A DNA stretch of 64,000 nucleotides from the NCBI GenBank assembly GCA_042570405.1, contig JBHPGR010000002.1:5992-69991 (forward strand). The letters run 5' to 3'. Numbering within the stretch: position 1 is the stretch's first letter; every line of letters starts with the position of its first letter. The position numbers and the translations under genes are program-made. This document shows, one piece after another, positions 5,476 to 42,878 of this stretch. The notes under the pieces were generated by a model. It searched no databases. It saw nothing but the letters and a program-made list of their open reading frames with translations, and was not told the DNA's origin. The DNA is from Candidatus Omnitrophota bacterium. Its GTDB lineage: Bacteria; Omnitrophota; Gorgyraeia; Gygaellales; Profunditerraquicolaceae.

Positions 5476-5642
5476 TTAAATCCTAAATTCGAAATCCTAA
5501 TGGTTCGACTCCGCTCACCATTAGTACTGAGCGAAGCCGAAGTACTAAATTCTAAACAAATCCCAAATTCTAAATCCCAAACTTTAGAATTTAGAGCTTA
5601 GAATTTGTTTAGGATTTAGATATTAGGATTTAGAATTTAAAT
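5476..5642. repeat. AT-rich imperfect palindromic intergenic element, copy B (with a GC-rich insert)
   Basis: It shares an identical 37-mer, CTAAATTCTAAACAAATCCCAAATTCTAAATCCCAAA (5545-5581), with copy C (8688-8724). It also shares an identical 24-mer, GCTTAGAATTTGTTTAGGATTTAG (5596-5619), with copy C (8743-8766). Confidence 0.7.
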
Positions 5643-7333: not shown

Positions 7334-8665
7334 ATGAAGAAGCCGAAAACAAAACAGGATGTGATCAGGTTAGCTAAAAAGGAGAAGGTCCGGTACATCA
7401 GGCTTTGGTTTACCGATGTCCTGGGGTTCCTTAAAGGTTTTACTATAACTATCGATGAGCTGGAGCGCGCGCTCTCTGATGGGATGGGTTTTGACGGCTC
7501 CTCGATCGAAGGCTTTGCGCGGATCGAGGAATCGGATATGACCGCAATGCCGGACCCGACAACTTTTGCGATCCTGCCCTGGGAGTCAAAGGATAAGAAG
7601 GTGGCGCGGATGCTCTGCGATATCTATACGCCTAAGGGAAAGCCATTTGAGATCGACCCGCGTTATGTTTTAAAAAAGAACTTGGCCCGGGCGAAAAATA
7701 AAGGCTTTACCTTTTATGTCGGGCCGGAGCTGGAATATTTTTATTTCAATAATCCCAAGAACACGATCATCCTGGATAAGGGCGGGTATTTTGACTTGAC
7801 TCCGCTGGATCTGGCCCAGAACGTCAGGAATGAAACGGTCAGTGCCCTGGAGGGCTTAGGGATCGTCGTCGAATACAGCCATCATGAAGTCGCCTCCAGC
7901 CAGCATGAGATCGACCTGCGTTACGGCGAAGCCCTGGCGATGGCCGATAATGTGATGACCTACAGGCTGGCGGTAAAGGAGATCGCTTTATCCAAGGGGC
8001 TGCATGCGACCTTTATGCCGAAACCTATATACGGGATAAACGGTTCGGGGATGCACACGCACATGTCATTATTTAAGGGCGCAAAAAACGCTTTTTACGA
8101 TCCTAAAGACAAATATTTCCTTTCAAAAGTGGCTAAGCATTTCATTGCCGGTATCATAAGGCATGCCGCTGAGTTGACAGCGGTGACTAACCAGTGGGTG
8201 AATTCTTATAAGAGGCTGGTCCCCGGATACGAGGCGCCGGTCTATATCTCCTGGGCGCGGATGAACCGTTCGGCCCTGGTGCGCGTTCCAATGACAAAGA
8301 CCGGCAGACAGAAGGCGACCCGCATCGAGTACCGCGCGCCTGACCCTGCCTGCAACCCGTATCTGGCATTTTCAGTATTACTTGCCGCAGGCCTTGAGGG
8401 GATCGAGAAGAAGTATCCTCTGCCTAAGCCGGCAAATGACAATATCTACAAGATGTCAGCTAAAGAGCGGGAGCGCGCAGGGATAAGATCTTTGCCGGAG
8501 GACCTTTTGGAGGCGATTAAGCTTACCGAGAAGTCAAGCCTGGTAAGGAAGGCCCTGGGCGATGAGCTTTTTGACTACTTTATCCGCAATAAGAAGATGG
8601 AGTGGGATGAGTACAAGGCCCAGGTCACCAAGTACGAAATAGACAAATATTTACCGATTCTTTAG
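7334..8665 (+). CDS. glnA: glutamine synthetase type I (443-aa form), copy 1
   Basis: It has GS motifs FDGSSIEGF, GPELEYF, HHEVA..QHEIDLRY, NGSGMHTHMS and NSYKRLVPGYEAP. Confidence 0.93.
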   Translation: MKKPKTKQDVIRLAKKEKVRYIRLWFTDVLGFLKGFTITIDELERALSDGMGFDGSSIEGFARIEESDMTAMPDPTTFAILPWESKDKKVARMLCDIYTPKGKPFEIDPRYVLKKNLARAKNKGFTFYVGPELEYFYFNNPKNTIILDKGGYFDLTPLDLAQNVRNETVSALEGLGIVVEYSHHEVASSQHEIDLRYGEALAMADNVMTYRLAVKEIALSKGLHATFMPKPIYGINGSGMHTHMSLFKGAKNAFYDPKDKYFLSKVAKHFIAGIIRHAAELTAVTNQWVNSYKRLVPGYEAPVYISWARMNRSALVRVPMTKTGRQKATRIEYRAPDPACNPYLAFSVLLAAGLEGIEKKYPLPKPANDNIYKMSAKERERAGIRSLPEDLLEAIKLTEKSSLVRKALGDELFDYFIRNKKMEWDEYKAQVTKYEIDKYLPIL

Positions 8666-8667
8666 AC

Positions 8668-8788
8668 CAAATACTAAATACTAAATTCTAAATTCTAAAC
8701 AAATCCCAAATTCTAAATCCCAAATAATGTTTAGGATTTAGTGCTTAGAATTTGTTTAGGATTTAGTGCTTAGGATTTCGAATTTAAA
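8668..8788. repeat. AT-rich imperfect palindromic intergenic element, copy C
   Basis: The left arm (about 8670-8725) and right arm (about 8730-8785) pair imperfectly, roughly 3 of 4 positions by hand alignment, around a TAATG loop. It shares the 37-mer and 24-mer with copy B. Confidence 0.7.
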
Positions 8789-8793
8789 ATATT

Positions 8794-9522
8794 ATGTCCA
8801 GGCCCAGCAAGCAAAATCATTACAAAATCTACCTGAAGCAGATCGAGGCGATCTCTAAGATCGCAGACCTGATCTCATCGGGAATGTACCTCGAGGAGCT
8901 CCTGCGTTTGGTGGTGCAGGTGACTGCCGAGCTTATGAATTCCAAGATCTCCTCGCTGATGCTGCTTGACTCTGACGGTAAGGAGCTTGTAGTCAGGGCC
9001 ACGCAGTCGATCTCTGAGGAATACAATAAGAAACCCAACATATTATTAGGCGAAGGTATTGCCGGAAGGGTCGCAAGCGGGAAGAAACCGATCTGTGTGA
9101 TGGATATCCGGGAGGATGAACGTTACTTGAATTGTGATATCGCCAAGAAAGAAGGACTTTGTTCTCTGGCCAGCGTTCCTTTGGCTGTGAGGGGGAGGAT
9201 TATCGGCGTGCTTAACTGTTATACATCGCGCAGGCATAAGTTCAGCAAACCGGAATTAGATGTTTTGACTGCCCTTGCTAATCAGGCGGCAGTAGCGATT
9301 GAGAATGCGGAATTAGACATTAGGGCGCGCAGCGCCGAAGAAGCATTGACCACGCGCAAGCTTATAGAGCGGGCAAAGGAGATACTTGCGCAGGAGGCAA
9401 ATATCCTGCCTGCCCAGGCATACAGGCTGATCCAGAAGCAGAGCATGGATACCCGTAAGTCCATGCGCGAAGTTGCAGAAGCTATAATCCTGGCTAAAGA
9501 TATAAAAGGGAAAAGAGCATAA
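8794..9522 (+). CDS. GAF sensor domain + ANTAR RNA-binding antiterminator domain protein
   Basis: The GAF core reads LLGEGIAGRVASGKKP...SLASVPLAVRGRIIGVLNCY. The C-terminal ANTAR signature reads LTTRKLIERAKEILAQ...AQAYRLIQKQSMDTRKSMREVAEAI. Confidence 0.85.
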   Translation: MSRPSKQNHYKIYLKQIEAISKIADLISSGMYLEELLRLVVQVTAELMNSKISSLMLLDSDGKELVVRATQSISEEYNKKPNILLGEGIAGRVASGKKPICVMDIREDERYLNCDIAKKEGLCSLASVPLAVRGRIIGVLNCYTSRRHKFSKPELDVLTALANQAAVAIENAELDIRARSAEEALTTRKLIERAKEILAQEANILPAQAYRLIQKQSMDTRKSMREVAEAIILAKDIKGKRA

Positions 9523-9528
9523 TAGGGC

Positions 9529-9556
9529 TTGACAAATCCGCAAAATATTTTATATT
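9529..9556 (+). promoter_or_regulatory. sigma70-like promoter candidate for the nfnAB-gdhA leader
   Basis: TTGACA (9529-9534), a 16-nt spacer, then TATATT (9551-9556). Confidence 0.5.
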
Positions 9557-9619
9557 GTTTATACAGCGGATCAGGTGATTTTACTGCGTTAAAACCGGTT
9601 GAAGGTTGAGAGGATTTTA

Positions 9620-9665
9620 GGACAAAGGCGTCCACCAAGATAGAGCAGGGAGGGCGTCTTTTTTA
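9620..9665 (+). promoter_or_regulatory. leader attenuator: mini-hairpin GGAC-AAAGGC-GTCC overlapping an intrinsic terminator
   Basis: The mini-hairpin spans 9620-9633. The terminator arms AAAGGCGTCC (9624-9633) and GGGCGTCTTT (9652-9661) pair over 10 bp including 2 G-U, followed by a T-run to 9664. The two folds are mutually exclusive. Confidence 0.5.
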
Positions 9666-9672
9666 TTATCTG

Positions 9673-10521
9673 ATGAGAATAATAAATAGGCAAAATCTGG
9701 TACATAATAAGCAGGCTAAGGTGTGCAGGATGGCGCTGGAGGCTCCGGCAATAGCTGCCAAAGCCCGACCAGGCCAGTTTGTGGTGGTAATGGCGGTTAA
9801 GGAAGGGGAGCGGATACCCCTTACTATAGTCGATGCCGATAAGGATAAAGGCACGATCACCCTGATCTTTCAGGCAGTAGGTTTTACCACGGAGCTGCTC
9901 TGTAAATTTAAGGAGGGTGATTCATTGTACGCCCTAAGCGGCCCGCTTGGCCATGCCACAGAGATAAAGAAATACGGCACTGTGGCCGTTGTAGGAGGAG
10001 GGGTAGGGATAGCAGAGGTTCTTCCGGTAGCCAAGGCTTTTAAAGCAGCAGGCAACCGCGTGATCTCTATATTGGGGGCAAGGAGTAAAGAGCTCTTGAT
10101 ACTGGAAGAAGAAATGCGAGCTGTATCTGATGAATTGCATATTACTACTGACGACGGCTCATATGACCGGAAGGGTTTTGTCACTGATATCCTAAAGGAA
10201 TTAATAGCTCCGCAGACCACAGACCCGGGAGTGGACTTGGTTTACGCGGTGGGACCGATCCCAATGATGCAAAGGGTAGCTCAAATCACCCTGGAACCAA
10301 AGATCAAGACTCTGGTTTCTTTAAATGCGTTGATGGTCGATGCTACCGGTATGTGCGGATGCTGCCGCGTGACCGTGGGGGGTAAGGTAAAATTCAGCTG
10401 CGTGGACGGCCCGGAGTTTGACGCGCATCAGGTTGACTGGGAGGAGTTGGAGAGGAGGGGCAAGATCTACGGCGAGAAGGAGAAACATATCTGTAAGTTA
10501 GCAGGAAGAGTGGGACTTTAG
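9673..10521 (+). CDS. NfnA/SudB-like FAD/NAD(P)-binding [2Fe-2S] oxidoreductase subunit (PyrK fold)
   Basis: 282 aa. It has the ferredoxin-reductase-type fold (ARPGQFVVV, VVGGGVGIA) and a C-terminal Cys cluster CGCCRVTVGGKVKFSCVDGPEF. It is adjacent to a GltD-like subunit, as in NfnAB/sulfide dehydrogenase. Confidence 0.8.
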   Translation: MRIINRQNLVHNKQAKVCRMALEAPAIAAKARPGQFVVVMAVKEGERIPLTIVDADKDKGTITLIFQAVGFTTELLCKFKEGDSLYALSGPLGHATEIKKYGTVAVVGGGVGIAEVLPVAKAFKAAGNRVISILGARSKELLILEEEMRAVSDELHITTDDGSYDRKGFVTDILKELIAPQTTDPGVDLVYAVGPIPMMQRVAQITLEPKIKTLVSLNALMVDATGMCGCCRVTVGGKVKFSCVDGPEFDAHQVDWEELERRGKIYGEKEKHICKLAGRVGL

Positions 10522-11946
10522 ATGAAGAAAATGCCGGTTCACCCTAAAGAATTAGATCCCGCCGTAAGGACAGGCGGTTTTAAAGAGGTAGTCTCGGTCT
10601 ATACTGAGCAGCAGGCGCTGGAGGAGGCCTCGCGCTGCCTGCAGTGTAAGGAGCCAGTCTGCATATCCGGATGCCCTGTAGGAATTGATATAAAGAAATT
10701 TATCCATCAGATCACTCAAAAGGATTATGAGGGAGCTTATTTTACGATCAGAGACAAAAATAATTTTCCTTCAATGTGCGGAAGGGTGTGTCCTGCGGAG
10801 TATCAGTGCCGCAAGACCTGTGTTATGACCAAGAAGGGGGAGCCTTTTGCATCTGAGCAGACGATCAATATACACCTTCTGGAGAGGTTTGCCGGAGATT
10901 ACGGGATCAAGAATAAGTTGGATCTTACGGTTAAGAAAGACAGAAAGTTTTCCCATGCTAAGGTTGCTGTGGTAGGTTCCGGACCTGCAGGCCTCTGCTG
11001 CGCCGGAGAGCTTGCCAGGCAGGGCATAAGGGTAGATATCTTTGAGAGCCTGCATCAGCCGGGAGGGGTCTTAAGGTACGGGATCCCGCCCTTCAGGCTG
11101 CCGGCAGAAGTGCTGGATTTCGAGATAGATTATCTTAAGAAATTAGGCGTTACGATCACTAAGAACTTTACCATAGGAAGGACCAGGACGCTGGATGACC
11201 TTTTTAACGATGATTATTCCTGTGTTTTTTTAGGGTTGGGAGCCGGGGTCCCCTCTTTCATGGGGTTGCCGGGCGAGACGCTCTGTAATGTATATTCTGC
11301 CAATGAATTCCTTACCCGCGCCAACTTGATGTCGGCCTATAAATTCCCGGAGTACCATACGCCTATTAATATAGGTAAACATGCTTTAGTGATCGGTGGA
11401 GGCAATACAGCGATGGATTCAGCCAGGGTGGCTCTACGACTGCAGAAGATCAACGGTTTTGCTGCGAATACTTCGATCCTTTATAGGCGCACAGAGGTGG
11501 AGATGCCGGCAAGGAGGCCGGAGATCGCTCACGCCGGGGAGGAAGGGGTAAAGTTCGAATTTCTGGTCCAGCCTAAGGAGTTTATCGGCGATGAGGCCGG
11601 TTTTGTAAAGAAGGTGCGCTGTTTAAGGTGCAAGCTGGGTGAGCCGGATGCCTCCGGTAGAAGGAGGCCGTTTCCTATCGAGGGGAGCGATTTCGAGATA
11701 GACTGCGACCTGGCAGTGATCGCTGTCGGGCTTCATGCAAATCATATCCTGACCGGTGCGACCCCGAATTTAAAGACGGATAAATATAAGGATATCGTAG
11801 TCAATCCCGATTCAATGGAGACTTCGATCAAGGGTGTATTCGCAGGCGGGGATATCGTAGGGGGTGAAGGCACGGTAATCGAGGCAATGGGTATGGCAAA
11901 AAAGGCGGCTTGTGGTATAATTGAGCGTATTAAAACCAACAGTTAA
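10522..11946 (+). CDS. NfnB/SudA-like (GltD-family) NADPH-dependent iron-sulfur flavoprotein subunit
   Basis: 474 aa. It has N-terminal Fe-S cysteines (CLQCKEPVCISGCPVGIDI, CGRVCPAEYQC) and two dinucleotide folds (VAVVGSGPAGL, LVIGGGNTAMD). Confidence 0.8.
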   Translation: MKKMPVHPKELDPAVRTGGFKEVVSVYTEQQALEEASRCLQCKEPVCISGCPVGIDIKKFIHQITQKDYEGAYFTIRDKNNFPSMCGRVCPAEYQCRKTCVMTKKGEPFASEQTINIHLLERFAGDYGIKNKLDLTVKKDRKFSHAKVAVVGSGPAGLCCAGELARQGIRVDIFESLHQPGGVLRYGIPPFRLPAEVLDFEIDYLKKLGVTITKNFTIGRTRTLDDLFNDDYSCVFLGLGAGVPSFMGLPGETLCNVYSANEFLTRANLMSAYKFPEYHTPINIGKHALVIGGGNTAMDSARVALRLQKINGFAANTSILYRRTEVEMPARRPEIAHAGEEGVKFEFLVQPKEFIGDEAGFVKKVRCLRCKLGEPDASGRRRPFPIEGSDFEIDCDLAVIAVGLHANHILTGATPNLKTDKYKDIVVNPDSMETSIKGVFAGGDIVGGEGTVIEAMGMAKKAACGIIERIKTNS

Positions 11947-11956
11947 AGGAGGAGAT

Positions 11957-13294
11957 ATGACTAAGAGAATCGAAGATTTCATGAGCAAGGTAAAGGCAAG
12001 AGACGGCGACCAGCCTGAATTCATCCAGGCAGTGCAGGAGGTCGTAGAGTCAGTGATGCCCTTTATCGAGGAGAATCCCAAGTACGAGGAGCATAAGATC
12101 CTGGAGAGGATAGTTGAGCCGGAGCGGGTGCTGATGTTCCGCGTCCCCTGGCTGAATGATAAGGGGGAGATCCAGGTAAACCGCGGCTATCGCATCGAGA
12201 TGAACAGCGCGATCGGGCCTTACAAGGGGGGATTACGTTTTCATCCCAGCGTCTACCTGGGGATCTTAAAATTCTTGGCTTTTGAGCAGGTATTCAAGAA
12301 TGCGCTGACTACCCTGCCTATGGGCGGCGGAAAGGGCGGCTCTGATTTCGATCCTAAAGGTAAATCAGACAATGAAGTGATGAAGTTCTGCCAGAGTTTT
12401 ATGACTGAGCTCTCTAGGCATATCGGCCCGGATACGGATGTTCCTGCCGGAGATATCGGCGTTGGCGGCCGCGAGATCGGTTATATGTTTGGCCAGTACA
12501 AGAGGCTGCGCAATGAGTTTACCGGCGTCCTGACCGGTAAGGGGCTGAATTGGGGCGGAAGCCTGATCCGTCCGGAAGCTACCGGTTACGGATGCACCTA
12601 TTTCGTTGAGGAGATGCTCAAGACTAGGGGTGAGACCTTGAAGGGTAAGGTGTGCGCGGTCTCCGGTTCGGGCAATGTCGCCCAGTATACAGTAGAGAAA
12701 TGCCTTCAGCTGGGCGCTAAGGTAGTCACTTTATCTGATTCCAACGGGTTCATCCATGACGAAAAGGGGATCGGAGAGAAGGAGCTTAAGTATGTGATGG
12801 AGCTTAAGAACGTCCGGCGCGGCAGGATTAAAGATTGCGTTAAGGAGTTTAACTGCGAATACCATGAAGGCAAGAAGCCGTGGCATGTCAAGTGCGATAT
12901 CGCCTTCCCAAGTGCCACCCAGAACGAGATCAACGCAGAGGATGCCAAGGTATTGGTGAAAAACGGTTGTATCGCCGTTGGTGAAGGTGCAAATATGCCG
13001 ACTACTCCTGGAGGTGTCGAGGTCTTCCAGAAGGCGAAGATCCTTTATGCTCCGGGTAAGGCAGCCAATGCCGGCGGGGTTGCCACTTCAGGCCTTGAGA
13101 TGTCACAGAACAGTCAGATGATGTCATGGAGCAGGGAAGAGGTGGATAAGAAACTGCATCAGATCATGATCAACATCCATGAGACTTGCGTAAGGTATGG
13201 AAAGGAAGATAAGCACATCGATTACGTCAAGGGGGCTAACCTCGGCGGGTTTGTCAAGGTCGCCGATGCGATGATCGACCAGGGATTAGTATAG
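11957..13294 (+). CDS. gdhA: NADP-specific glutamate dehydrogenase
   Basis: It has the GDH catalytic motif LPMGGGKGGSDFDPKG and the dinucleotide fold VSGSGNVAQY. The ATG at 11957 is preceded by AGGAGG. The track's earlier TTG start at 11921 overlaps the upstream gene. Confidence 0.93.
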   Translation: MTKRIEDFMSKVKARDGDQPEFIQAVQEVVESVMPFIEENPKYEEHKILERIVEPERVLMFRVPWLNDKGEIQVNRGYRIEMNSAIGPYKGGLRFHPSVYLGILKFLAFEQVFKNALTTLPMGGGKGGSDFDPKGKSDNEVMKFCQSFMTELSRHIGPDTDVPAGDIGVGGREIGYMFGQYKRLRNEFTGVLTGKGLNWGGSLIRPEATGYGCTYFVEEMLKTRGETLKGKVCAVSGSGNVAQYTVEKCLQLGAKVVTLSDSNGFIHDEKGIGEKELKYVMELKNVRRGRIKDCVKEFNCEYHEGKKPWHVKCDIAFPSATQNEINAEDAKVLVKNGCIAVGEGANMPTTPGGVEVFQKAKILYAPGKAANAGGVATSGLEMSQNSQMMSWSREEVDKKLHQIMINIHETCVRYGKEDKHIDYVKGANLGGFVKVADAMIDQGLV

Positions 13295-13349: not shown

Positions 13350-13377
13350 TTGACAAAAAAAGAATCGGTGTTATACT
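13350..13377 (+). promoter_or_regulatory. sigma70-like promoter candidate for the amtB-glnK-glnA leader
   Basis: TTGACA (13350-13355), a 16-nt spacer, then TATACT (13372-13377). Confidence 0.5.
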
Positions 13378-13404
13378 TTAAGTAACTACAGTGATGTAGT
13401 TGAT

Positions 13405-13448
13405 GACGCTGAAGTCTTTCGGTGGTTGGATTGCCGGAGGACTTTTTT
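13405..13448 (+). promoter_or_regulatory. leader attenuator module 1 (mini-hairpin + terminator)
   Basis: The mini-hairpin GAC-GCTGAA-GTC (13405-13416) overlaps the 5' arm AGTCTTTCGG (13413-13422). That arm pairs with CCGGAGGACT (13434-13443) over 10 bp including 2 G-U, followed by TTTTT. Confidence 0.5.
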
Positions 13449-13453
13449 GTTGC

Positions 13454-13501
13454 AGGACGGCGAAGTCCTTTATCCGAATGGCCGGATAGAGGATTTTTTT
13501 T
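13454..13501 (+). promoter_or_regulatory. leader attenuator module 2 (mini-hairpin + terminator)
   Basis: The mini-hairpin AGGAC-GGCGAA-GTCCT (13454-13469) overlaps the 5' arm TCCTTTATCCG (13466-13476). That arm pairs with CGGATAGAGGA (13483-13493) over 11 bp. The hexaloop is AATGGC, followed by 8 T. Confidence 0.6.
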
Positions 13502-13507
13502 GAATTT

Positions 13508-13565
13508 GGACAGAGGCGTCCAATTTAACGCGCAAAGATCTGCGCATTAATTGGGCGCTTTTTTT
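13508..13565 (+). promoter_or_regulatory. leader attenuator module 3 (mini-hairpin + extended terminator)
   Basis: The mini-hairpin GGAC-AGAGGC-GTCC (13508-13521) overlaps the 5' arm AGAGGCGTCC (13512-13521). That arm pairs with GGGCGCTTTT (13553-13562). An inner GCGCA/TGCGC hairpin is present and the T-run extends to 13565. The motif is nearly identical to the one at 9620-9661. Confidence 0.5.
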
Positions 13566-13583
13566 GTGCCCGGGAAGGGAGAT

Positions 13584-14831
13584 ATGGAGACGATTATAAC
13601 AGGACTTGATACTTTGTGGGTGATGATCGCGGCATTTTTGGTGTTTATTATGCAGGCGGGTTTTGGCATGCTTGAGGCAGGATTAGTCAGGACAAAGAAT
13701 ACCTGCAATATTTTGATGAACAACTTTCTCGATTTCTGTATGGCATCGGTAGGGTTCTTTGTCTTTGGTTATGCGATCATGTTCGGCACCGGAAACGGTT
13801 TTATGGGTTTCAGCGGATGGGCGCTGATCAACGCCAATTCCGGAGGACATTTGCCATTGTATGCGGAGTGGTTGTTTCATGCGGTCTTTTGCGGGGCAGC
13901 AGCGACAATTGTAGCCGGAGGAGTTGCAGAAAGGATGAAGTTTAAGGTCTACCTTATATATTCTTTCCTGATCTCTGCCTTGATATATCCGATCGTAGGG
14001 CATTGGATATGGGGAGGGGGCTGGCTTTCGAAATTGGGTTTTGCGGATTTCGCCGGCTCTACGGTGGTGCATGCTGTCGGCGGCACCGCTGCTTTAGTGG
14101 GCACGATATGCCTGGGCCCCAGGATAGGCAAATTTAATAAAGACGGCTCAGCCAATGCGATTCAGGGTCATTCTATGGCCTTAGCTTCTCTGGGGACCCT
14201 GGTACTTTGGTTTGCCTGGTTTGGTTTTAATCCCGGTTCGACCTTAAGCGTCGGTGACGGAAGCAAAATCGCACATGTAGCGGTGACTACGAATATGGCG
14301 GCTGTCTCCGGAGCGCTGGTGGCGATGTTTTTTGCCTGGAGGAAGTTCGGCAAGCCGGATCTTACCATGACCATGAACGGAGCTTTGGCAGGATTAGTGG
14401 CGATAACCGCTCCCTGCGCCTTTGTCATGCCTTTAGAGGCGATGGCAATCGGAGCGATAGGCGGGATCATCGTAGTGCTGGGAACGGTATTTCTGGATAA
14501 AATGCATATTGACGATCCGGTGGGCGCTGTCCCGGTGCATGCAATGAACGGGATCTGGGGGACTTTAGCAATCGGAATCTTCGGGCACCAGTCATTAGGG
14601 CTGGCCAGGGAGGGACTATTGCACGGAGGAGGCTTTTCGCAATTAGGAGTGCAGGCTTTAGGCGTGGGATCAGCAGTCATATTTGTGCTGATTGCGATGT
14701 TTACAATCTTTAAGACGTTAGACAGGTTTGTGGGTTTAAGGGTTTCAAGAGAGGATGAATTAAAGGGCCTGGATATCAGCCAGCACGGGATGGAATCCTA
14801 CGCCGGATTTGAGATATTCACTACGCAATAA
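13584..14831 (+). CDS. amtB: ammonium transporter AmtB
   Basis: It is polytopic and has the Amt signature [13 protein letters not shown]. Downstream [15 protein letters not shown] is also present. The ATG at 13584 is preceded by GGGAAGGGAG. It is followed directly by a P-II gene. Confidence 0.93.
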
Positions 14832-14841
14832 GGAGGGGATG

Positions 14842-15192
14842 ATGAAACTTATAATCGCGCTGATACAGCCGCATAAACTTCCTGATGTAAAAAAGGAGCT
14901 CTTTGATACAGAGGTTTATAAGATGACGGTCTCAAACGCCCTGGGTTGCGGACAACAGAAGGGATACACCGAGACCTACCGTGGGGTTGTGCATGAGGTA
15001 AACCTGCTGAAAAAAGTCAGGCTTGAGATCGCGGTAAATGATAACTTTGTCAGGCCTACGATCGATGCGATCATCAAGGGTGCCCGTAACGGTTCCCAGG
15101 GCAGGATCGGTGACGGAAAGATATTTGTATTAGATCTGCCCGAATGTATCAGGATCAGGACAGGGGAGCGGGGAGGTGAAGCGATAGGATGA
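14842..15192 (+). CDS. glnK: P-II nitrogen regulatory protein GlnK
   Basis: It starts [17 protein letters not shown] and has a T-loop [14 protein letters not shown] and the C-terminal GDGKIFV motif. AGGAGG lies 5 nt upstream of the ATG at 14842. An alternative ATG is at 14839. Confidence 0.9.
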
Positions 15193-16634: not shown

Positions 16635-16685
16635 GTGCAGGGGAGTCTAAATTTTGGGCAGGATTAGCGTTTAATTTAAACAGAG

Positions 16686-16952
16686 ATGAACAAAGAGATT
16701 TATACACAAGAAAAAAAAGAAAGACTCCAGGAGCTGGTTGCCCAGATCGATGAGGAGTTTATCCGGAATAACCGGACACGCCTCTACAAGTTTTTTGTTG
16801 AGGCGCTGGAGAAGCCGTTGATCGAGAGGATCCTGGAGAAGACTGATGGCAATCAGCTTAGGGCAGCCAGGATATTAGGCATCAACCGCAACACCCTAAG
16901 AAGTAAGATAAAGAAGTTCGCAATCAACACCGCGAGGTGGAAGATAGGATGA
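16686..16952 (+). CDS. Fis-family small DNA-binding protein (HTH_8 type)
   Basis: 88 aa. LYKFFVEALEKPLIERILEKTDGNQLRAARILGINRNTLRSKIKKF aligns with the Fis/NtrC C-terminal HTH. Its stop overlaps the gltB ATG (ATGA at 16949-16952). Confidence 0.7.
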   Translation: MNKEIYTQEKKERLQELVAQIDEEFIRNNRTRLYKFFVEALEKPLIERILEKTDGNQLRAARILGINRNTLRSKIKKFAINTARWKIG

Positions 16953-22895: not shown

Positions 22896-25472
22896 ATGAT
22901 TAGCACAGGGATTAAAGGATTGGATAACGTGATCACGGGCCTAAGGGCGGGGGATAACGTAGTCTGGCAGATAGATGATATAAAAGACTATATTGACCTT
23001 GTAAAGCCGTTTGTCAAAGAGGCGCTGAAGCAGAAGAAGAGGGTGGTCTATATGAGGTTTGCCTCGCATAAAGAGGTGCTTAAACCCTTAAAGCGGATCA
23101 AGCGCTATGAGCTTAATGCCCATGCCGGCTTCGAATCCTTTGCCACGAAAGTAAACCGGATTATCACGCAGGAGGGGGAGGGAGCCTATTATGTGTTTGA
23201 CTGCCTTTCAGAGCTGCTTTCAGCCTGGGCAAATGACTTGATGATCGGTAACTTTTTTATGGTCACCTGTCCCTATCTTTACGAGCTGAAGACCCTGACC
23301 TACTTTTCCATATTACGCAACAATCATTCCTTTAAGTCTGTTGCGCGCATCCGGGAGACCACGCAGTTACTGATGGATGTGTACCACTGTGAAAGGAACT
23401 TCTATATTCACCCCTTAAAGGTCTGGAACCGTTATTCTTCCACGATGTTCCTTCCTCATCAAAGAAAAAAGGAAAACTTTATTCCGATTGTAGACAGCGT
23501 AAATGCGGCAAAGTTCTTATCATACATCCGCGAGCACGGAGCAGAGAGTGCCAAGCGCAACCTCGATTACTGGGACCGTTTATTCTTAGAGGCAGAGGAG
23601 CTGCTAAAAAAAGGTGCTCCCAAAAAGAAGATTAAGGCGATGGTTAAGAAGCTTTGCAGCATCATGGTGACCAAGAATAAAAAGATCATGGATCTGGCAG
23701 TACGTAATTTTTCGCTTGATGAGCTGGTTGATATGAAGGCCAGGCTGATCGGTACGGGTTTTATCGGAGGCAAGACTGTAGGGATGCTTCTGGCCCGAAA
23801 GATGCTCGGTAAAAACAGGAACCTTGACTGGCAAAGGCTCTCTGAACCGCACGATTCGTTTTTTGTCGGCTCGGATATATTCTATTCTTACATTGTCCAG
23901 AACCGCTGGTGGAAGCTGCGCATGCAGCAGAAGACAGAGGGAGACTATTTTAAGGCCGCTCAGATCCTGAGGGAGAAGATGCTTTACGGGGTCTTTCCGG
24001 AGGAGATCATGGAGCACTTTCAGCAGATCATCGAGTATTTCGGCTCATCACCGATCATCATCCGCTCAAGTTCTCTTCTTGAGGATGGTTTCGGCAATGC
24101 CTTTGCCGGTAAATACGAAAGCATATTCCTGGCAAATCAGGGCACTCCGGAGGAGAGGTATATCCGTTTTGCCGAGGCGGTGAAAAGGATTTACGCTAGC
24201 ACGATGAGCGAGGATGCCCTGGCTTACAGGAAGCAGAGGGGGCTGGATAAATTAGATGAACAGATGGCGCTTTTGGTGCAGCGGGTCTCAGGGGCGCACC
24301 ACAAGAATTATTTCTTTCCTGATCTGGCCGGAGTGGGAGTCTCCTATAATACTTATGTCTGGAACGAGAGCATGGATTCCAAGGCGGGGATGCTCAGGCT
24401 TGTCTTTGGCCTGGGCACTAGGGCGGTCAACCGCGTGGAAGGAGATTATCCGCGGATGGTCGCGCTTGACGAGCCCCTACGCAGGCCCTATGCCGAGAAG
24501 GATGACCTGAGAAAATATTCCCAGCATGAGGCGGACCTGATCAATACCAAGGAGAATGCGCTTAGGACCGTATCGCTTGAGAGGATAATCAGCGAGAAGG
24601 CCTACAGCGGCATCGAGCGCCTTGCGGTAAGGGACGATGAAGCAATGCGGATGATGGAGCGGGTCAGAGGCAATAAAGAGTATTGGATTCTGACATTGGA
24701 TAAGCTCTTTTCAGGTAACGGACTGGCCGGATCATTCAGTAAGATCCTTAAGGCGCTTGAGCAGAGCTACCGCTATCCGATCGAAATAGAATTTACGGTA
24801 AATTTCACCGAGGATAACGCCTATAAGATAAACCTGCTGCAGTGCAGGCCGCTGCAGACGCGCGGATTAGGCCGTAAGGTCTACATACCGGATCAGGTCA
24901 AAAGCGGCGATAAATTCTTTGAATCACGCGGATATTTCCTGGGCGGGAACATATCGCAGAAGATCGACTGGATAATCTATGTCGATCCTCAAAAGTATAG
25001 CGAACTCGCTTTATCGGATAAGCATGAGATCGCCCGCACAGTGGGAAAATTAAACCGGATGATCATGAGCAGGGAAGAATTGCCTACTCTCTTGATGGGG
25101 CCGGGCAGGTGGGGTACCACAACGCCTTCTTTAGGCGTGCCGGTCAAATTTGCCGAGATCAATAATGTAGCAGTGCTTGCCGAGGTGGCTTTTTCAGCGG
25201 GGAATCTGGCGCCGGAACTATCATTCGGGACGCATTTCTTCCAGGACCTGGTGGAGACTAATATTTTCTATACTGCGCTTTTCCCCGAAAAGAAGGAGGT
25301 CTTATTAAACGGGCAAAAGTTGAGTGAGTTTAACGATCTGTTCGCAAAACTTGTGCCGGAGTCGTTAAGGTATAAGGGGCTGATCAGTGTTTATGATGTC
25401 AGTCAAAAGGGGATGAGGGTCATGTCAGATGTTGTATCCCAGAGGGTAGTCTGTTTTTCCAAAAATGATTGA
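22896..25472 (+). CDS. PEP/pyruvate-binding (PPDK_N ATP-grasp) domain protein with a degenerate RecA/KaiC-like N-terminal domain
   Basis: 858 aa. PPDK_N motifs are GFIGGKTVGMLLA, IIRSSSLLEDGFGNAFAGKYES, MALLVQRV and IEIEFTV. The N-terminus STGIKGLDNVITGLRAGDNVVW resembles the KaiC/RadA lead-in, but no GxxGxGKT follows. No GG.TSHAAI swivel-His motif was found. Confidence 0.6.
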   Translation: MISTGIKGLDNVITGLRAGDNVVWQIDDIKDYIDLVKPFVKEALKQKKRVVYMRFASHKEVLKPLKRIKRYELNAHAGFESFATKVNRIITQEGEGAYYVFDCLSELLSAWANDLMIGNFFMVTCPYLYELKTLTYFSILRNNHSFKSVARIRETTQLLMDVYHCERNFYIHPLKVWNRYSSTMFLPHQRKKENFIPIVDSVNAAKFLSYIREHGAESAKRNLDYWDRLFLEAEELLKKGAPKKKIKAMVKKLCSIMVTKNKKIMDLAVRNFSLDELVDMKARLIGTGFIGGKTVGMLLARKMLGKNRNLDWQRLSEPHDSFFVGSDIFYSYIVQNRWWKLRMQQKTEGDYFKAAQILREKMLYGVFPEEIMEHFQQIIEYFGSSPIIIRSSSLLEDGFGNAFAGKYESIFLANQGTPEERYIRFAEAVKRIYASTMSEDALAYRKQRGLDKLDEQMALLVQRVSGAHHKNYFFPDLAGVGVSYNTYVWNESMDSKAGMLRLVFGLGTRAVNRVEGDYPRMVALDEPLRRPYAEKDDLRKYSQHEADLINTKENALRTVSLERIISEKAYSGIERLAVRDDEAMRMMERVRGNKEYWILTLDKLFSGNGLAGSFSKILKALEQSYRYPIEIEFTVNFTEDNAYKINLLQCRPLQTRGLGRKVYIPDQVKSGDKFFESRGYFLGGNISQKIDWIIYVDPQKYSELALSDKHEIARTVGKLNRMIMSREELPTLLMGPGRWGTTTPSLGVPVKFAEINNVAVLAEVAFSAGNLAPELSFGTHFFQDLVETNIFYTALFPEKKEVLLNGQKLSEFNDLFAKLVPESLRYKGLISVYDVSQKGMRVMSDVVSQRVVCFSKND

Positions 25473-25497
25473 CTTAAGGATTAGCTTATGTTATATT
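25469..25497 (+). promoter_or_regulatory. sigma70-like promoter candidate for the pyrG leader
   Basis: TTGACT (25469-25474, overlapping the upstream stop codon), a 17-nt spacer, then TATATT (25492-25497). Confidence 0.45.
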
Positions 25498-25537
25498 TTA
25501 CAGTGATAGTTCGAAGCAGCACTATTAATAAACAATG

Positions 25538-28269
<2,732 letters not shown>

Positions 28270-28292
<23 letters not shown>

Positions 28293-29931
28293 AAAAATAT
28301 TGGTCATCGGTTCAGGCCCGATCATCATCGGGCAGGCCTGCGAGTTTGATTACTCAGGCAGCCAGGCCTGCAAGGTCTTAAAGCAGGAGGGGTATGAAGT
28401 GATCGTAGTCAACTCCAATCCTGCTACGATAATGACTGACCCTGAGATGGCGGATAAGACCTATATCGAGCCCATAAATGTAAGCCTGATCGAGAAGGTG
28501 ATCGCTAAGGAAAAACCAGATGCCTTGCTTCCCACCCTAGGCGGCCAGACTGCATTAAATACTGCCGTAGAATTGGAGAAGCAGGGAATACTCAAGAAGT
28601 ATGATCTCGAGACCATAGGCGCAAATATTACTGCTATCAAAAAGGGTGAAGACCGGGAATTATTCAAGGAATCAATGCTTAAGATCGGTCTGGAGGTGCC
28701 TAAGAGCGATAAGGCCTATAGCCTTAAAGAGGCGATGAAGGTCGCCCAAGAGATAGGATTTCCTCTGATCATCAGACCAAGTTTTACCTTAGGTGGTACA
28801 GGCGGAAGTGTTGCCTATAACATTGAGGATTTTAAGGATTTGGCCCGGCGTGGACTTGAGGCAAGCATGATCAGTGAGATCCTGATCGAGCAATCAGTCT
28901 TGGGCTGGAAGGAGTTTGAGCTTGAGGTGATGCGCGATTTAAAGGATAACGTAGTGATCATCTGCTCGATCGAGAACTTTGACCCTATGGGGATCCATAC
29001 CGGAGATAGCATCACTGTGGCGCCTGCACAGACGCTTACTGATAAAGAGTATCAGAGGATGCGGGATGCGGCGATCGCCTGTATCAGGGAGATCGGGGTT
29101 GAAACCGGGGGGTCTAACATTCAGTTTGCAGTCAATCCTGAAGATGGTAGGATGGTGATTATCGAAATGAATCCCAGGGTATCACGGAGCTCTGCGCTCG
29201 CCTCTAAGGCAACTGGATTTCCCATCGCCAAGATTGCAGCCAAATTAGCTGTCGGCTATACGCTTGATGAGATCCCCAACGATATCACTAAGGAGACGCC
29301 CGCCTGCTTTGAGCCAGCGATCGATTACTGTGTAGTCAAGATACCGCGCTTTGTCTTTGAGAAATTTTCCACTCTTGAGCCGACTCTGACAGTGCAGATG
29401 AAATCAGTAGGCGAGGTGATGGCGATCGGAAGGACTTTTAAGGAGGCGCTCCAGAAGGGCTTGCGTTCTCTTGAAATCGGCAAATATGGCTTAGAGAGCG
29501 TGTTATTTAGAGATTATGCCCTTAAACCAAAGATTAATAATCGCAATATGGAATTGCTTTACAGGAAATTAAGGATCGCCAATCCGGAAAGGTTATTTTA
29601 TATAGCCGATGCCTTAAGGGTAGGGATTGATCTGGATGAGATCTCTGCTTTGACCAAGATCGACAAATGGTTTTTATATAATATTAAGGAGATTATTGAC
29701 CTTGAGAGGCAGATGATTAAGTCCAAAAAAAATATTAAGCCTGAACTTTTGCGTAAGGCAAAGGAGTTCGGCTTTAGCGATAGAATTTTAGGGAAGCTTT
29801 TAGATAAGAAGGAGGGGGAGGTTTTTAAGTTAAGGAAGTCGCTGGGGATCAAGCCTGATTTTAAGCTGGTTGATACCTGCGCCGCCGAATTTCAGGCCTT
29901 CACCCCTTACTATTATTCGACATATAGTTAG
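28270..29931 (+). CDS. carB: carbamoyl-phosphate synthase large subunit, N-terminal half only (carboxyphosphate + oligomerisation domains)
   Basis: 553 aa with a GTG start overlapping carA. It is collinear with residues 1 to about 553 of the full-length CarB at 39681. It ends cleanly at ...[10 protein letters not shown], and no CPS-like sequence follows in any frame. Confidence 0.85.
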
Positions 29932-39505: not shown

Positions 39506-39533
39506 TTGACATAATTAAAAAATCTAGTATACT
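39506..39533 (+). promoter_or_regulatory. sigma70-like promoter candidate for the carB leader
   Basis: TTGACA (39506-39511), a 16-nt spacer, then TATACT (39528-39533). Confidence 0.45.
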
Positions 39534-39572
39534 TATAGGTAGTCCAATAGCGTACTACTAAACAAAACAATG

Positions 39573-39615
39573 GCGTTTGGAGGCTGAGATTATCGGTGCT
39601 TCAAGCGCTTTTTTT
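39573..39615 (+). promoter_or_regulatory. carB leader attenuator (terminator hairpin + T-run), conserved with the pyrG leader
   Basis: GCGTTTGGA (39573-39581) pairs with TTCAAGCGC (39600-39608) over 9 bp, followed by 7 T. It is preceded by AACAATGGCG, as at pyrG. Confidence 0.55.
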
Positions 39616-39680: not shown

Positions 39681-42600
39681 ATGCCAAGACGCAAAGACAT
39701 CAAGAAGGTCCTGATCATAGGTTCCGGACCGATCATCATCGGCCAGGCCTGCGAGTTTGACTATTCGGGAACTCAGGCCTGTAAGGCATTAAAAGAAGAG
39801 GGCTACGAGGTAGTATTAGTAAATTCTAACCCGGCAACGATCATGACTGATCCGGGGATGGCGCATAAGACTTATATCGAGCCGCTTAATGAAGAAAGCT
39901 TAGAGCGGATCATCGAAAAGGAGCGGCCGGATGCGCTGCTTCCTAATTTAGGGGGGCAAACAGGCCTTAATCTATCTTCGAGCCTTCATAAGTCCGGAGT
40001 ATTGAAGAAATACGGTATTAAAGTGATCGGCGTTCAGACTGATGCGATCGAGCGCGGGGAGGACCGTCTGGCTTTTAAGGAGACGATGAAGAAGCTCAAT
40101 ATCCCCGTTCCTAAGTCTGATGTCAGCCATTCGGTAGAGGAGGCGCAGAAGATAGCCGAAGAGATCGGTTATCCCGTAGTACTGAGGCCGGCATACACCA
40201 TGGGGGGGACCGGGGGCGGGATCGCTTATAATGTAGAAGAATTAAGGGTGATCGTAAATCGCGGCCTTAACGTAAGTATCGTTCATCAGGTTTTAGTAGA
40301 AGAGGCAGTGATCGGCTGGGAGGAGCTGGAGCTTGAGGTGGTACGCGATACAAAGGATCAGAAGATCACCGTTTGTTTCATCGAAAATATTGACGCCATG
40401 GGGGTGCATACAGGAGACAGCTTCTGCGCGGCGCCGATGTTGACTGTGCCCAAACCTTTACAGAAGAAGATGCAGGATTTATCTTACAAGATCGTAGATG
40501 CGATCGGCGTGGTCGGAGGTACTAATATCCAGTTTGCCCATAACCTTAAGACTGACCGCCTGGTGGTGATTGAGATCAACCCGCGGACTTCACGCTCATC
40601 GGCGCTTGCTTCCAAGGCAACCGGTTTTCCTATTGCCAGGATCTCAACCAAGTTGGCTGCTGGTTTGACCATGGATGAGATCCCTTACTGGAAAGAGGGG
40701 ACGCTTGAGAAGTATGAGCCAAGCGGAGATTATGTGGTGATCAAGTTTGCCCGTTGGGCATTTGAGAAATTCCCCGGAGCCAAGGATATACTTGGGACTC
40801 AGATGAGGGCGGTAGGGGAAGTAATGAGTATAGGTAAGACTTACAAGGAGGCCTTCCAGAAGGCAATCCGCTCCCTTGAGATAGGAAGATATGGCTTGGG
40901 CGTTGCAAAATTTAAGGCGCTTGCTGATGAGGTGTTAAAGGGAAGGATCGCTACTCCTTCGAGCGAACGGATATTTCTGATGTATGAAGCACTGCGCCGG
41001 GGCGCTTCGGTCGAGGAGCTATATAGAGTAACCCACATCGGCCGCTGGTTCATCCAGGAGATGAAGGATCTCGTAGATTTCGAGGAGGAGATCTCAAAGA
41101 ATAAATGGAAGGACCTTTCTGATCAGAAGCTGGCTAAGGCGAAAGAGTTAGGTTTTTCTGACAGATACCTTGCCGGATTGTTTGACGTCAAAGAAGCCGA
41201 GGTAAGAAAGCGCAGGATCAAGATCGGCAAGGCCGGGCGTTTTGATGCGGTTCCGGTCAGCGGCGTTGAGAATGCAGCTTATTATTACTCTACCTATATA
41301 AAGGAGGATAAGGTACCTGTTTCACCAAATAAAAAAGTATTGATCTTAGGGGGTGGCCCGAATAGGATCGGCCAGGGGATAGAATTTGACTATACCTGTG
41401 TGCATGCGGCCTTTGCGCTTCGCGATGAAGGATATGAATCGATCATGGTCAACTGTAACCCCGAGACCGTATCTACAGATTATGATACTTCCAACAAACT
41501 GTATTTTGAGCCTTTGACCGTAGAAGATGTGCTGACGATCTGGGAGAAGGAGAAGCCGATGGGCGCGATCGTGCAGTTTGGAGGGCAGACCCCCTTAAAC
41601 ATCGCACAGGAGCTTAAGGATAACGGGGTGAAGATCCTCGGGACTTCTCCTGAAAGTATCCGCCTGGCAGAGGACAGGGAGTATTTCCGTAAGCGGATGA
41701 TCGAGCTTAAGATCCCGCAGCCGGAGAGCGGGGCAGCGCGCTCCATGGAAGAAGCTTTAAAGATAGCAAAAAAAATAGGTTATCCTTTGATGGTGCGTCC
41801 TTCATTTGTGCTTGGCGGAAGGGGGATGCAGGTAGTTTATGACGAACAGATGCTGCGCAAATACACCGAGGAGGCGATCGAGATAACCCCGGAATATCCG
41901 ATGTTGATCGATAAGTTCCTGGAGCAGGCAGTTGAGACTGAAGTCGATGCGCTTGCTGACGGTAAGGACTGCTTTGTGGCATCGATCATGGAGCATATCG
42001 AGCTTGCCGGAGTCCACTCCGGAGATTCTGCCTGCGCCATCCCCACCAGGACGATCAAGGAAGAGCATCTAAAAACAATAGAGAAATATACTGCCCAGAT
42101 CGCAAAGGAGCTTAAGGTCGTGGGCCTGATGAATATTCAGTATGCGATCTGCGATAACAAGGTCTATATCTTAGAGGCAAATCCACGGGCATCGCGGACT
42201 GTGCCTTTAGTCTCTAAGATCACGAATATTGCGATCGCCAGGATAGCTACGCAGGTGATGCTCGGGAAAAAGCTAAAGGATTTTCCGGAGTTGAAAAAAT
42301 ATAAGCTTCCTTATGTCGGGGTCAAGGAAGCGGTGTTCCCTTTTAATATGTTTCCCGAGGTAGATCCGGTCCTCGGCCCTGAGATGAGAGCTACCGGGGA
42401 GGTGATGGGGATCGGCGAGACCTTTGGTATGGCCTTTTACAAGGCGCAGGAAGCTGCAGGAGTCAAATTACCGTTGGAGGGAAGCGTATTGTTGACTGTA
42501 GCAGAAAAAGATAAGCAGAAATTGCTTCCTATAGCCAAGCGGCTAGAGAAGGCAGGCTTTAAGATCCTGGCTACAGAGGGGACCGGCCGTTTCTTGAGTG

Positions 42601-42878
42601 AAAACGGGGTCAAGAATAACCAGATCAAAAAGTTGTACGAGGGAAGGCCGAATATTACCGATGCGATCAAGAACAAAGATGTCCAGCTGATTGTAAATAC
42701 GCCGATCGGTAGAGGTAGTAAGTATGATGACAGCTACATACGGATGATGGCGATCCAGCATAAGCTGCCTTACATTACTTCAATCGCTGCTGCAGAGGCG
42801 AGCATCGAGGGGATCGAGGCGGCAAAGAAGAATAAGATCACTGCTACCTCTTTACAGGATTATTACAAGAAGCTATAA
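39681..42878 (+). CDS. carB: carbamoyl-phosphate synthase large subunit (full length)
   Basis: 1065 aa. It has both ATP-grasp halves and the C-terminal MGS-like allosteric domain. GGAGGAG precedes the ATG. Confidence 0.95.
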   Translation: MPRRKDIKKVLIIGSGPIIIGQACEFDYSGTQACKALKEEGYEVVLVNSNPATIMTDPGMAHKTYIEPLNEESLERIIEKERPDALLPNLGGQTGLNLSSSLHKSGVLKKYGIKVIGVQTDAIERGEDRLAFKETMKKLNIPVPKSDVSHSVEEAQKIAEEIGYPVVLRPAYTMGGTGGGIAYNVEELRVIVNRGLNVSIVHQVLVEEAVIGWEELELEVVRDTKDQKITVCFIENIDAMGVHTGDSFCAAPMLTVPKPLQKKMQDLSYKIVDAIGVVGGTNIQFAHNLKTDRLVVIEINPRTSRSSALASKATGFPIARISTKLAAGLTMDEIPYWKEGTLEKYEPSGDYVVIKFARWAFEKFPGAKDILGTQMRAVGEVMSIGKTYKEAFQKAIRSLEIGRYGLGVAKFKALADEVLKGRIATPSSERIFLMYEALRRGASVEELYRVTHIGRWFIQEMKDLVDFEEEISKNKWKDLSDQKLAKAKELGFSDRYLAGLFDVKEAEVRKRRIKIGKAGRFDAVPVSGVENAAYYYSTYIKEDKVPVSPNKKVLILGGGPNRIGQGIEFDYTCVHAAFALRDEGYESIMVNCNPETVSTDYDTSNKLYFEPLTVEDVLTIWEKEKPMGAIVQFGGQTPLNIAQELKDNGVKILGTSPESIRLAEDREYFRKRMIELKIPQPESGAARSMEEALKIAKKIGYPLMVRPSFVLGGRGMQVVYDEQMLRKYTEEAIEITPEYPMLIDKFLEQAVETEVDALADGKDCFVASIMEHIELAGVHSGDSACAIPTRTIKEEHLKTIEKYTAQIAKELKVVGLMNIQYAICDNKVYILEANPRASRTVPLVSKITNIAIARIATQVMLGKKLKDFPELKKYKLPYVGVKEAVFPFNMFPEVDPVLGPEMRATGEVMGIGETFGMAFYKAQEAAGVKLPLEGSVLLTVAEKDKQKLLPIAKRLEKAGFKILATEGTGRFLSENGVKNNQIKKLYEGRPNITDAIKNKDVQLIVNTPIGRGSKYDDSYIRMMAIQHKLPYITSIAAAEASIEGIEAAKKNKITATSLQDYYKKL

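Follow-up and report, generated by a model that had tools for sequence, protein, structure and literature searches.

How is the nfnAB-gdhA operon of an uncultured bacterium controlled, when only a short leader separates it from the gene of a putative RNA-binding regulator? The question is raised by a 64,000-nt stretch of DNA from a Candidatus Omnitrophota bacterium (assembly GCA_042570405.1, contig JBHPGR010000002.1, positions 5,992 to 69,991 of the forward strand), here called the window, in which an open reading frame (ORF) for a protein with a GAF and an ANTAR domain is directly followed by that operon. An earlier note, made from the letters alone, had read the leader as a small hairpin and a terminator that compete for the same nucleotides. 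The arrangement is not a chance pattern, and the observation is correct in every coordinate. We consider it quite likely, from the sequence evidence given below, that the leader (9563-9672 in window numbering, used throughout) works as an ANTAR-type attenuator of transcription that depends on a protein, in which a dimer of the GAF-ANTAR protein would capture the hairpin, and that the same protein family acts on the amtB, pyrG, and carB units.

The stop codon of the regulator gene lies at 9520-9522, and the promoter proposed in the earlier note begins 6 nt further on, with TTGACA at 9529-9534, a 16-nt spacer, and TATATT at 9551-9556 (Table 1). Given a transcription start near 9563, the leader has the length of about 110 nt that had been estimated. 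The hairpin consists of GGAC (9620-9623), the loop AAAGGC (9624-9629), and GTCC (9630-9633), so that the A at loop position 1 (A1) and the G at loop position 4 (G4), pointed out as the mark of ANTAR substrates, are found at 9624 and 9627. It is the top match in the window of a covariance model of the unit family described below (23.9 bits, E 0.003), the site being part of the training set of that model. The loop and the 3′ half of the hairpin pair with 9652-9661 in a helix of 10 bp, two of them G–U, which is followed by a T-run at 9659-9664 and then ATTAT, and the ATG of nfnA at 9673 is located 8 nt past this T-run. No Shine-Dalgarno sequence is seen between the T-run and the nfnA start (9664-9675), nor at the same place in the related locus L002; the sole GGAGG (9650-9654) sits in the 3′ arm of the terminator, about 20 nt upstream of the start.

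Because hairpin and terminator share nucleotides 9624-9633, the two folds exclude each other, as the earlier note had maintained. The energies calculated for the two folds are −5.5 kcal/mol for the hairpin and −12.1 kcal/mol for the 10-bp terminator helix, with a minimum free energy of −15.8 kcal/mol for the region, and the nascent RNA up to 9645, before the 3′ arm is made, folds into the hairpin. Termination is therefore the default, and the hairpin needs help from outside to win. Such an arrangement of a default terminator and an assisted hairpin is the logic of protein-stabilised antitermination. A search of the window for GGAC-N6-GTCC gives four occurrences, where 0.39 are expected and none of 100 shuffles reaches four, and three of the four fall in two leaders.

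ANTAR proteins have been described as recognizing A1/G4 hexaloops in a dual-hairpin motif (P1 and P2), of which the second hairpin overlaps a terminator, and the targets predicted for them are concentrated before nitrogen genes (PMC3369931). The structure of EutV with RNA has since redefined the minimal ANTAR site as a single hexaloop, with P1 and the spacing still being needed for antitermination (PMC8934654). The nfnA leader does not have the two tandem hexaloops of the 2012 definition and agrees with the single-hexaloop definition of 2022; the earlier note had cautioned that it could see only one clear hexaloop, and there is indeed no second A1/G4 hexaloop in this leader. Two candidates for P1, AACC-GGTTGAA-GGTT (9593-9607, with a heptaloop) and GGAT-CAGGTG-ATTT, were considered and rejected, neither being conserved in orthologous leaders.

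The window contains six hairpin/terminator units in four leaders, namely those of nfnAB-gdhA, amtB-glnB-glnA (three units in tandem), pyrG-carA, and carB. The units of pyrG-carA and carB were found by a relaxed pattern scan, and both overlap strong terminators. The amtB leader (13350-13566) does have the canonical P1 and P2, the former being the hairpin at 13383-13402 and the latter unit A. The stem-AGYGAT-stem element of this P1 is also present in L007, L014, and L025; in L005 the loop in that place reads GAGGTT. The covariance model built from the unit family ranks the six sites top in the window, with nothing else of note; since these sites belong to its training set, the ranking shows only that the window holds no further site. 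The mechanical ORF starts of pyrG (25546) and amtB (13551) fall inside the leader terminators, and the true starts are probably the ATG at 25585 for pyrG (MTKYIF...) and the Met at ORF residue 12, at about 13584, for amtB (METIITG...).

The 242-aa protein encoded upstream of the leader has the domains that had been assigned to it, GAF_2/GAF at residues 33-170 (E 1e-22) and ANTAR (PF03861) at residues 181-232 (E 5.4e-18) in Pfam. Its layout comprises the GAF domain (about 30-150), a single long helix (152-202), and the three-helix ANTAR end; in the AlphaFold2 (AF2) model, with a predicted local distance difference test score (pLDDT) of 83, helix 152-202 is followed by helices 206-220 and 224-241 in the ANTAR arrangement of EutV and Rv1626, which together with NasR are also the sequence matches in the PDB. 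One NCBI protein from Omnitrophota is 100% identical to the regulator, and the best 120 of its 4748 homologues are Omnitrophota proteins of about 80% identity. According to the alignment to 6wsh, the residues by which EutV contacts the hexaloop are kept (R188, K189, E192, K195, Y210, M218, and R221). For the contacts checked in the EutV structure, Tyr164, which stacks on G4, corresponds to Y210, the Met172 "plug" to M218, and Arg142, Lys143, Lys149, and Arg175 to R188, K189, K195, and R221, respectively, and at E160, R168, and R177, which are not conserved, the regulator has P, Q, and S instead.

The GAF domain matches the PtsP GAFs 3ci6 and 3trc in Foldseek at template modeling (TM) scores of 0.82-0.83. 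Among the solved GAFs, PtsP (EI-Ntr) comes first, followed by GAFs of the cAMP/cGMP type (Lcd1 with cAMP, CyaB2) and by the NifA-like Nlh1/2, and the NifA GAF 9qq6 gives only a weak match (E 0.0055). The GAF of EI-Ntr answers to glutamine and 2-oxoglutarate, and that of NifA to 2-oxoglutarate. As the domain is closest to the PtsP type, glutamine is as eligible as 2-oxoglutarate, and our guess from analogy with these neighbors, which make either plausible and prove neither, would be that the ligand is 2-oxoglutarate and/or glutamine.

The earlier note had tied its proposal to the presence of the motif upstream of orthologous operons in relatives with the same regulator, and there it is found, among others in L002, L098, L123, and L132. 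A metagenome scan with NfnA yields 80 loci, of which 38, mostly loci with at least 59% identity, show the hairpin no more than 150 nt before nfnA; together with the window, L002, L030, L043, and L056, they make a set of 43 leaders, so that the cassette of promoter, hexaloop hairpin, and terminator is seen before nfnA in 42 loci other than the window. When the leaders are folded with the 5′ half of the hairpin withheld, the loop and the 3′ half pair downstream to give the overlapping helix in all 43. The T-rich tail is good in 40 of them and weak in L116, L124, and L128, and a strong promoter of the form TTGACA-16/17-TAnnnT, matching at least 9 of 12 positions, is located between the upstream gene and the hairpin in 42. 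The loop begins with A1 in 37 of the 39 leaders that pass the automated terminator test. RNAalifold applied to 32 orthologous leaders recovers the terminator with 13 pairs, seven of which show compensatory changes, and this pair count lies above all 500 shuffles and all slid controls. The gap between the end of the −10 box and the hairpin ranges from 5 to 63 nt around a median of 22 nt, the 63 nt of the window's leader being unusually long and holding no conserved P1, and an upstream A1/G4 hexaloop hairpin is present in only 3 of the 42 orthologous leaders. The near absence of upstream hexaloops and the short gap mark the nfnA leaders as putative single-hexaloop attenuators.

The units are not confined to nfnA. 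Species-representative genomes, when searched with the regulator, give 77 loci, mostly from Omnitrophota but also from Aerophobetes, Firestonebacteria, Desulfuromonadales, and some Clostridia-labeled metagenome-assembled genomes (MAGs), and the relaxed pattern finds 88 distinct units in these loci and the window, almost all of them on the strand of the regulator and upstream of nitrogen-assimilation genes. The hairpins fall into two classes, GAC/GTC stems with ARAGRC loops and AAC/GTT stems with AATGGC loops. Of the 88 loops, 59 begin with A and 60 have A in second place, position 5 is a purine in 86, and position 6 is C in 68. G4, which was not imposed by the search, is present in 40 of 41 GAC-N6-GTC units. 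The stem covaries: pair 3 is GC in 45 units, AU in 25, GU in 16, and other in 2 (Fisher 3.7e-9), pair 4 is AU in 31, GC in 29, GU in 8, and other in 19, and none of 500 shuffles reaches the covariation score of the alignment.

The genes found 3′ of the units are nfnA, gdhA, amtB, the PII gene, glnA of types I and III, the glutamine-dependent nadE, carA, carB, and pyrG, besides DUF1846 genes, BBP2 porins, a small sigma-70-like protein, and a paralogous GAF-ANTAR gene, so that the genes under the units make up what their annotation identifies as a putative nitrogen-assimilation regulon. The idea of a main nitrogen switch, advanced in the earlier note, is strengthened by the window units before amtB-glnB-glnA, pyrG-carA, and carB and by those before further nitrogen genes in the relatives. 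Of all units, 26 lie before the paralogous GAF-ANTAR gene itself, which would imply autoregulation.

This paralogous group, 55-60% identical to the regulator, is seen in L030, L033, L035, L037, L043, L051, L054, L057, L065, and L068. One or two units lie about 100-250 nt upstream of its genes, which match at about position 8000 of these loci, GGAC-AAAGGC-GTT... and then AAAC-AATGGC-GTTTT, again suggesting autoregulation. An archaeal-type glutamate synthase gene (MNLGRPNANDA...) is often located 3′ of the paralogue, with a leader of a different kind, in which an outer helix encloses two hairpins. In many relatives (L005, L007, L014, L025, L008, L029, and L058), a gene for a 175-aa sigma-70 region-2 protein is found 3′ of the orthologous regulator gene, behind P1 and two units, and is followed by the gene of a BBP2 (OmpL-like) porin or of a secreted protein without annotation, which is behind units of its own, an order that suggests a cascade from the ANTAR protein to a sigma factor.

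On the basis of these observations we infer the following mechanism. Transcription would start at the promoter just past the regulator gene, and by default the RNA would fold into the terminator (9624-9661 with the U-run) and stop 8 nt before nfnA. A GAF-ANTAR dimer in its RNA-binding state would capture the nascent hexaloop hairpin at 9620-9633, with G4 (9627) stacking on Tyr210 as G4 does on Tyr164 of EutV, and the captured hairpin would keep 9624-9633 away from the 3′ arm of the terminator, such that transcription continues into nfnAB-gdhA. Proteins of this family would also act in trans on the units before amtB-glnB-glnA2, pyrG-carA, and carB, which would thereby form a nitrogen and glutamine regulon. 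Our guess is that 2-oxoglutarate and/or glutamine would be sensed by the GAF domain and, since amtB lies behind three terminators, that nitrogen limitation is the condition in which the protein is active.

A number of findings weigh against this mechanism. The nfnA leaders lack P1, whereas antitermination by EutV needs P1 and the P1-P2 spacing, and the AAAC/GUUU hairpins of pyrG and carB have very little stability by themselves (−0.4 and −0.7 kcal/mol). The covariation of the hairpin comes only from the wider 88-unit alignment and is not significant within the nfnA leaders alone, which we attribute to the three inner pairs being invariant there, partly through how the leaders were selected. 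No loci but the window, L002, L098, L123, and L132 have the regulator gene directly before the nfnA leader, that is, 3 of the 38 metagenome leaders in addition to the window and L002. The cassette is thus a part of nfnAB, and regulation would have to be exerted in trans. Finally, some relatives have two or three GAF-ANTAR paralogues per genome (L013/L068 and L011/L054/L058), and the hairpin could therefore be bound by a paralogue.

The last two points lead to the rival explanation that survives best, according to which the element is an ANTAR attenuator whose binder is a member of the paralogous GAF-ANTAR group or another ANTAR protein, the adjacency of the regulator gene being incidental. The paralogues occur in several MAGs, and the two hairpin classes could map to different ones. 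Yet the order of regulator stop, promoter, hairpin, terminator, and nfnA recurs in the other four loci just named, in many group-A loci the regulator gene directly precedes the unit of other targets (sigma-like, nadE, and carA), and the RNA-contact residues are intact in the window's protein. We consider this explanation unlikely and favor binding and antitermination by the GAF-ANTAR protein encoded next to the leader.

We have also considered that the structure might be a plain terminator of the upstream glnA/GAF-ANTAR transcription unit, or an insulator, with the hairpin as a by-product and no regulation. Its position 130 nt past the regulator stop codon would suit such a role, and the promoter is a consensus match only. 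However, the cassette accompanies nfnA irrespective of which gene precedes it, with the promoter before the hairpin in nearly all leaders, the 5′ GAC is invariant even though it is outside the terminator, the loop G4 is conserved, and the same hairpin/terminator unit is seen inside the amtB, pyrG, and carB leaders, all of which makes this explanation very improbable.

Even less credit can be given to GAC-N6-GTC being a DNA palindrome downstream of the promoter and serving as the operator of a transcription factor. The core is palindromic, and helix-turn-helix (HTH) regulators of the Lrp and Fis types are encoded nearby, at 5670 and 16680, but the orientation of the element is strongly strand-specific. 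GAC-N6-GTC hairpins that lend their loop and 3′ half to the start of a terminator number about 40 on the strand of the regulator and 4-5, mostly weak, on the other. When every hexaloop hairpin of 4 bp that overlaps a terminator is admitted, units with G4 number 74 on the + strand versus 15 on the − strand, and the stems GAC/GTC, AAC/GTT, GAC/GTT, and GAT/GTC occur on the + strand only. Moreover, the loop is asymmetric (ARAGRC, G4), the element always overlaps the 5′ arm of a terminator, and the stem often contains G–U pairs (16 + 8 + 8 cells), which DNA would have as mismatches. The frequent G–U pairs and the strand asymmetry speak for structured RNA and against an operator in the DNA. A metabolite riboswitch, T-box, PyrR-type attenuator, or leader-peptide attenuator would also present alternative folds in a 5′ leader before nitrogen and pyrimidine genes, but has hardly any probability, given that no relevant Rfam family reaches its gathering score anywhere in the window, that 9480-9720 shows nothing but noise when E values of up to 10 are allowed, that the median gap of 22 nt leaves no room for an aptamer, and that no leader ORF is seen on reading the sequence.

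Antitermination of nitrogen genes by ANTAR proteins is already known from GnfR, NasR, EutV, and the predictions of 2012; new here are the uncharacterized GAF sensor class, the single-hexaloop units, and the phylum Omnitrophota. A close resemblance is to GnfK/GnfR of Geobacter sulfurreducens, where ANTAR antitermination controls nitrogen-fixation genes and the target of GnfR, CAGGCAANGGCGCC, is a GGC-AANGGC-GCC hexaloop that overlaps termination signals, a loop with which the AAAGGC and AATGGC of the window agree (PMC2995071). The stems differ, GGC/GCC there and GAC/GTC or AAC/GTT in the window, and GnfR is a phosphorylated REC-ANTAR response regulator under sigma-54 and GnfLM, in contrast to the one-component GAF sensor and the sigma-70-type promoters of the window. 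The gdhA gene of Geobacter is, moreover, repressed by GnfM at the DNA level and not under the ANTAR protein. EutV/EutW of Enterococcus faecalis share the A1/G4 hexaloop, its 3′ half overlapping the terminator, and several terminators per regulon (PMC3369931, PMC8934654), and the G4-stacking Tyr, the Met "plug", and the Arg/Lys contacts of EutV are conserved in the window's protein, but EutV has a REC sensor in place of GAF and dual hexaloops with a required P1 instead of the single hexaloop of the nfnA, pyrG, and carB leaders.

NasR, which acts on the nasF leader of Klebsiella oxytoca, and NasT are similar in another respect, NasR being a one-component ANTAR protein that combines a small-molecule sensor with hexaloop binding in nitrogen assimilation; in contrast to the present protein, its NIT domain senses nitrate or nitrite, it serves a single operon, and it is described as binding two hairpins. 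In the solventogenic Clostridium cluster glnA-nitR-gltAB, the genes for glnA, an ANTAR regulator, and a glutamate-forming enzyme follow each other in a way that resembles glnA1, GAF-ANTAR, and nfnAB-gdhA; the sensor domain of NitR is not known to be a GAF. The regulons predicted by Ramesh et al. in 2012 include sites before genes for PII, the ammonium transporter, and the synthases of glutamate and glutamine, and a transcription unit may have several of them, e.g., in Desulfotomaculum acetoxidans, but they were obtained with the dual-hairpin model and do not cover Omnitrophota (PMC3369931). There is no characterized GAF-ANTAR protein in that survey or in the ANTAR literature of 2020 and 2025 that we examined, within which NasR and the light sensor PAL are the only one-component ANTAR proteins characterized.

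Table 1. Coordinates of the regulator, the leaders, and the regulated operon in the window
Feature	Position	Strand	Details	Basis
GAF-ANTAR one-component regulator	8794-9522	+	242 aa	Pfam, AF2 model, EutV contact residues, homologues
Sigma-70-type promoter, nfnAB-gdhA leader	9529-9556	+	TTGACA-16-TATATT	11/12 consensus positions
ANTAR-type hexaloop hairpin (putative antiterminator)	9620-9633	+	GGAC-AAAGGC-GTCC	Sequence, energy, covariance model
Intrinsic terminator	9624-9664	+	5′ arm 9624-9633 (hairpin loop and 3′ half), 3′ arm 9652-9661, T-run
Operon under the nfnA leader (putatively regulated)	9673-13294	+	nfnA-like 9673-10521, nfnB/gltD-like 10522-11946, gdhA 11921-13294	Pfam
Promoter, amtB-glnB-glnA2 leader	13350-13377	+	TTGACA-16-TATACT
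P1-type hexaloop hairpin	13383-13402	+	TAACTAC-AGTGAT-GTAGTTG (A1, G4), no terminator of its own, 2 nt before unit A
Unit A	13405-13451	+	Hairpin GAC-GCTGAA-GTC (13405-13416), overlaps terminator 13411-13445 and T-run
Unit B	13455-13505	+	Hairpin GGAC-GGCGAA-GTCC (13455-13468), overlaps terminator 13462-13497 and T-run
Unit C	13508-13566	+	Hairpin GGAC-AGAGGC-GTCC (13508-13521), overlaps terminator 13512-13562 and T-run
pyrG-carA leader	25469-25579	+	Promoter TTGACT-17-TATATT (25469-25497), hairpin AAAC-AATGGC-GTTT (25530-25543), terminator 25537-25573 and T-run	23.2 bits
carB leader	39506-39615	+	Promoter TTGACA-16-TATACT (39506-39533), hairpin AAAC-AATGGC-GTTT (39565-39578), terminator 39572-39609 and T-run	20.9 bits

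According to Pfam, the + strand of the window carries nadE, an Lrp/AsnC regulator, an aminotransferase, glnA1 (7334-8665), and the GAF-ANTAR ORF, then the regulated operon, amtB, the PII gene (14809-15192), and glnA2. These are followed by a Fis-type HTH ORF, gltB, gltD, a PPDK_N-domain protein, pyrG, carA, a half-size carB, purQ, purL, and purF, and farther on by a full-length carB and a DUF1846 gene. The absence of NtrB, NtrC, GlnD, and GlnE, which the earlier note had reported, is borne out by Pfam, which finds no protein with such domains among the main ORFs of the + strand and two ORFs of the − strand.

Of the two carB-type genes, the half-length one (553 aa, 28270-29931) comes right after carA, and the full-length one (1065 aa, 39681-42878), which has its own ANTAR-type leader, stands before the DUF1846 gene; in L060, a DUF1846 gene has a unit of its own. 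The small Fis-family ORF (90 aa, 16680-16952, + strand) overlaps the start of gltB, and ORFs homologous to it lie directly 3′ of the paralogous GAF-ANTAR gene in L038, L039, L044, L048, and L059, such that it may be a second regulator tied to the GAF-ANTAR system. The window also encodes an Enzyme I of the phosphotransferase system (57238-58968, + strand), which is without the N-terminal GAF domain that defines EI-Ntr.

Two gaps, between glnA1 and the regulator gene (8669-8785) and between nadE and the Lrp gene (5477-5639), are filled by long, imperfect, AT-rich inverted repeats built of tandem TAAATYCY-like units of 8-9 nt, with arms of 56 nt at 77% and 48 nt at 75% complementarity, respectively. 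These repeats could be terminators, elements resembling repetitive extragenic palindromes (REP) or miniature inverted-repeat transposable elements (MITE), or protein-binding arrays. Farther downstream, a tRNA gene (54300-54655, + strand) contains a group I intron (Rfam RF00028, 92.5 bits, 54330-54585) that splits its anticodon loop. Its exons read GGGCCAC...ACCGCCCUCA before the intron and ...AAGGCGGG...GUGGCCCACCA after it, and the anticodon looks like CAU. The gene is not called by ARAGORN; tRNA-Leu(tag) and tRNA-Gly(gcc) come next.

Taken to its widest, the proposal is that a one-component GAF-ANTAR family serves as master regulator of nitrogen in Omnitrophota and the neighboring candidate phyla Aerophobetes and Firestonebacteria, replacing DNA-level control of the NtrBC, GlnR, or NtcA type, that it senses 2-oxoglutarate or glutamine directly through a PtsP-like GAF, and that its antitermination uses modular units of one hexaloop and one terminator, of which as many as three may follow each other, and dispenses with the P1 "recruitment" hairpin required by EutV. 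We put this forward tentatively, as a generalization that may well prove too broad. The units are short and modular, consisting of a promoter, a 14-nt hairpin, and a terminator, which makes them directly testable in vitro and reusable as synthetic attenuators. The nfnA leaders offer a natural test of whether one hexaloop suffices for ANTAR antitermination, a question that the EutV structure of 2022 raised but did not settle. If the proposed mechanism is true, it would give the large GAF-ANTAR class, with its 4748 homologues, the closest 120 of them about 80% identical, a first functional assignment, and it would provide a first picture of nitrogen regulation in Omnitrophota, to our knowledge a phylum without a cultured representative.

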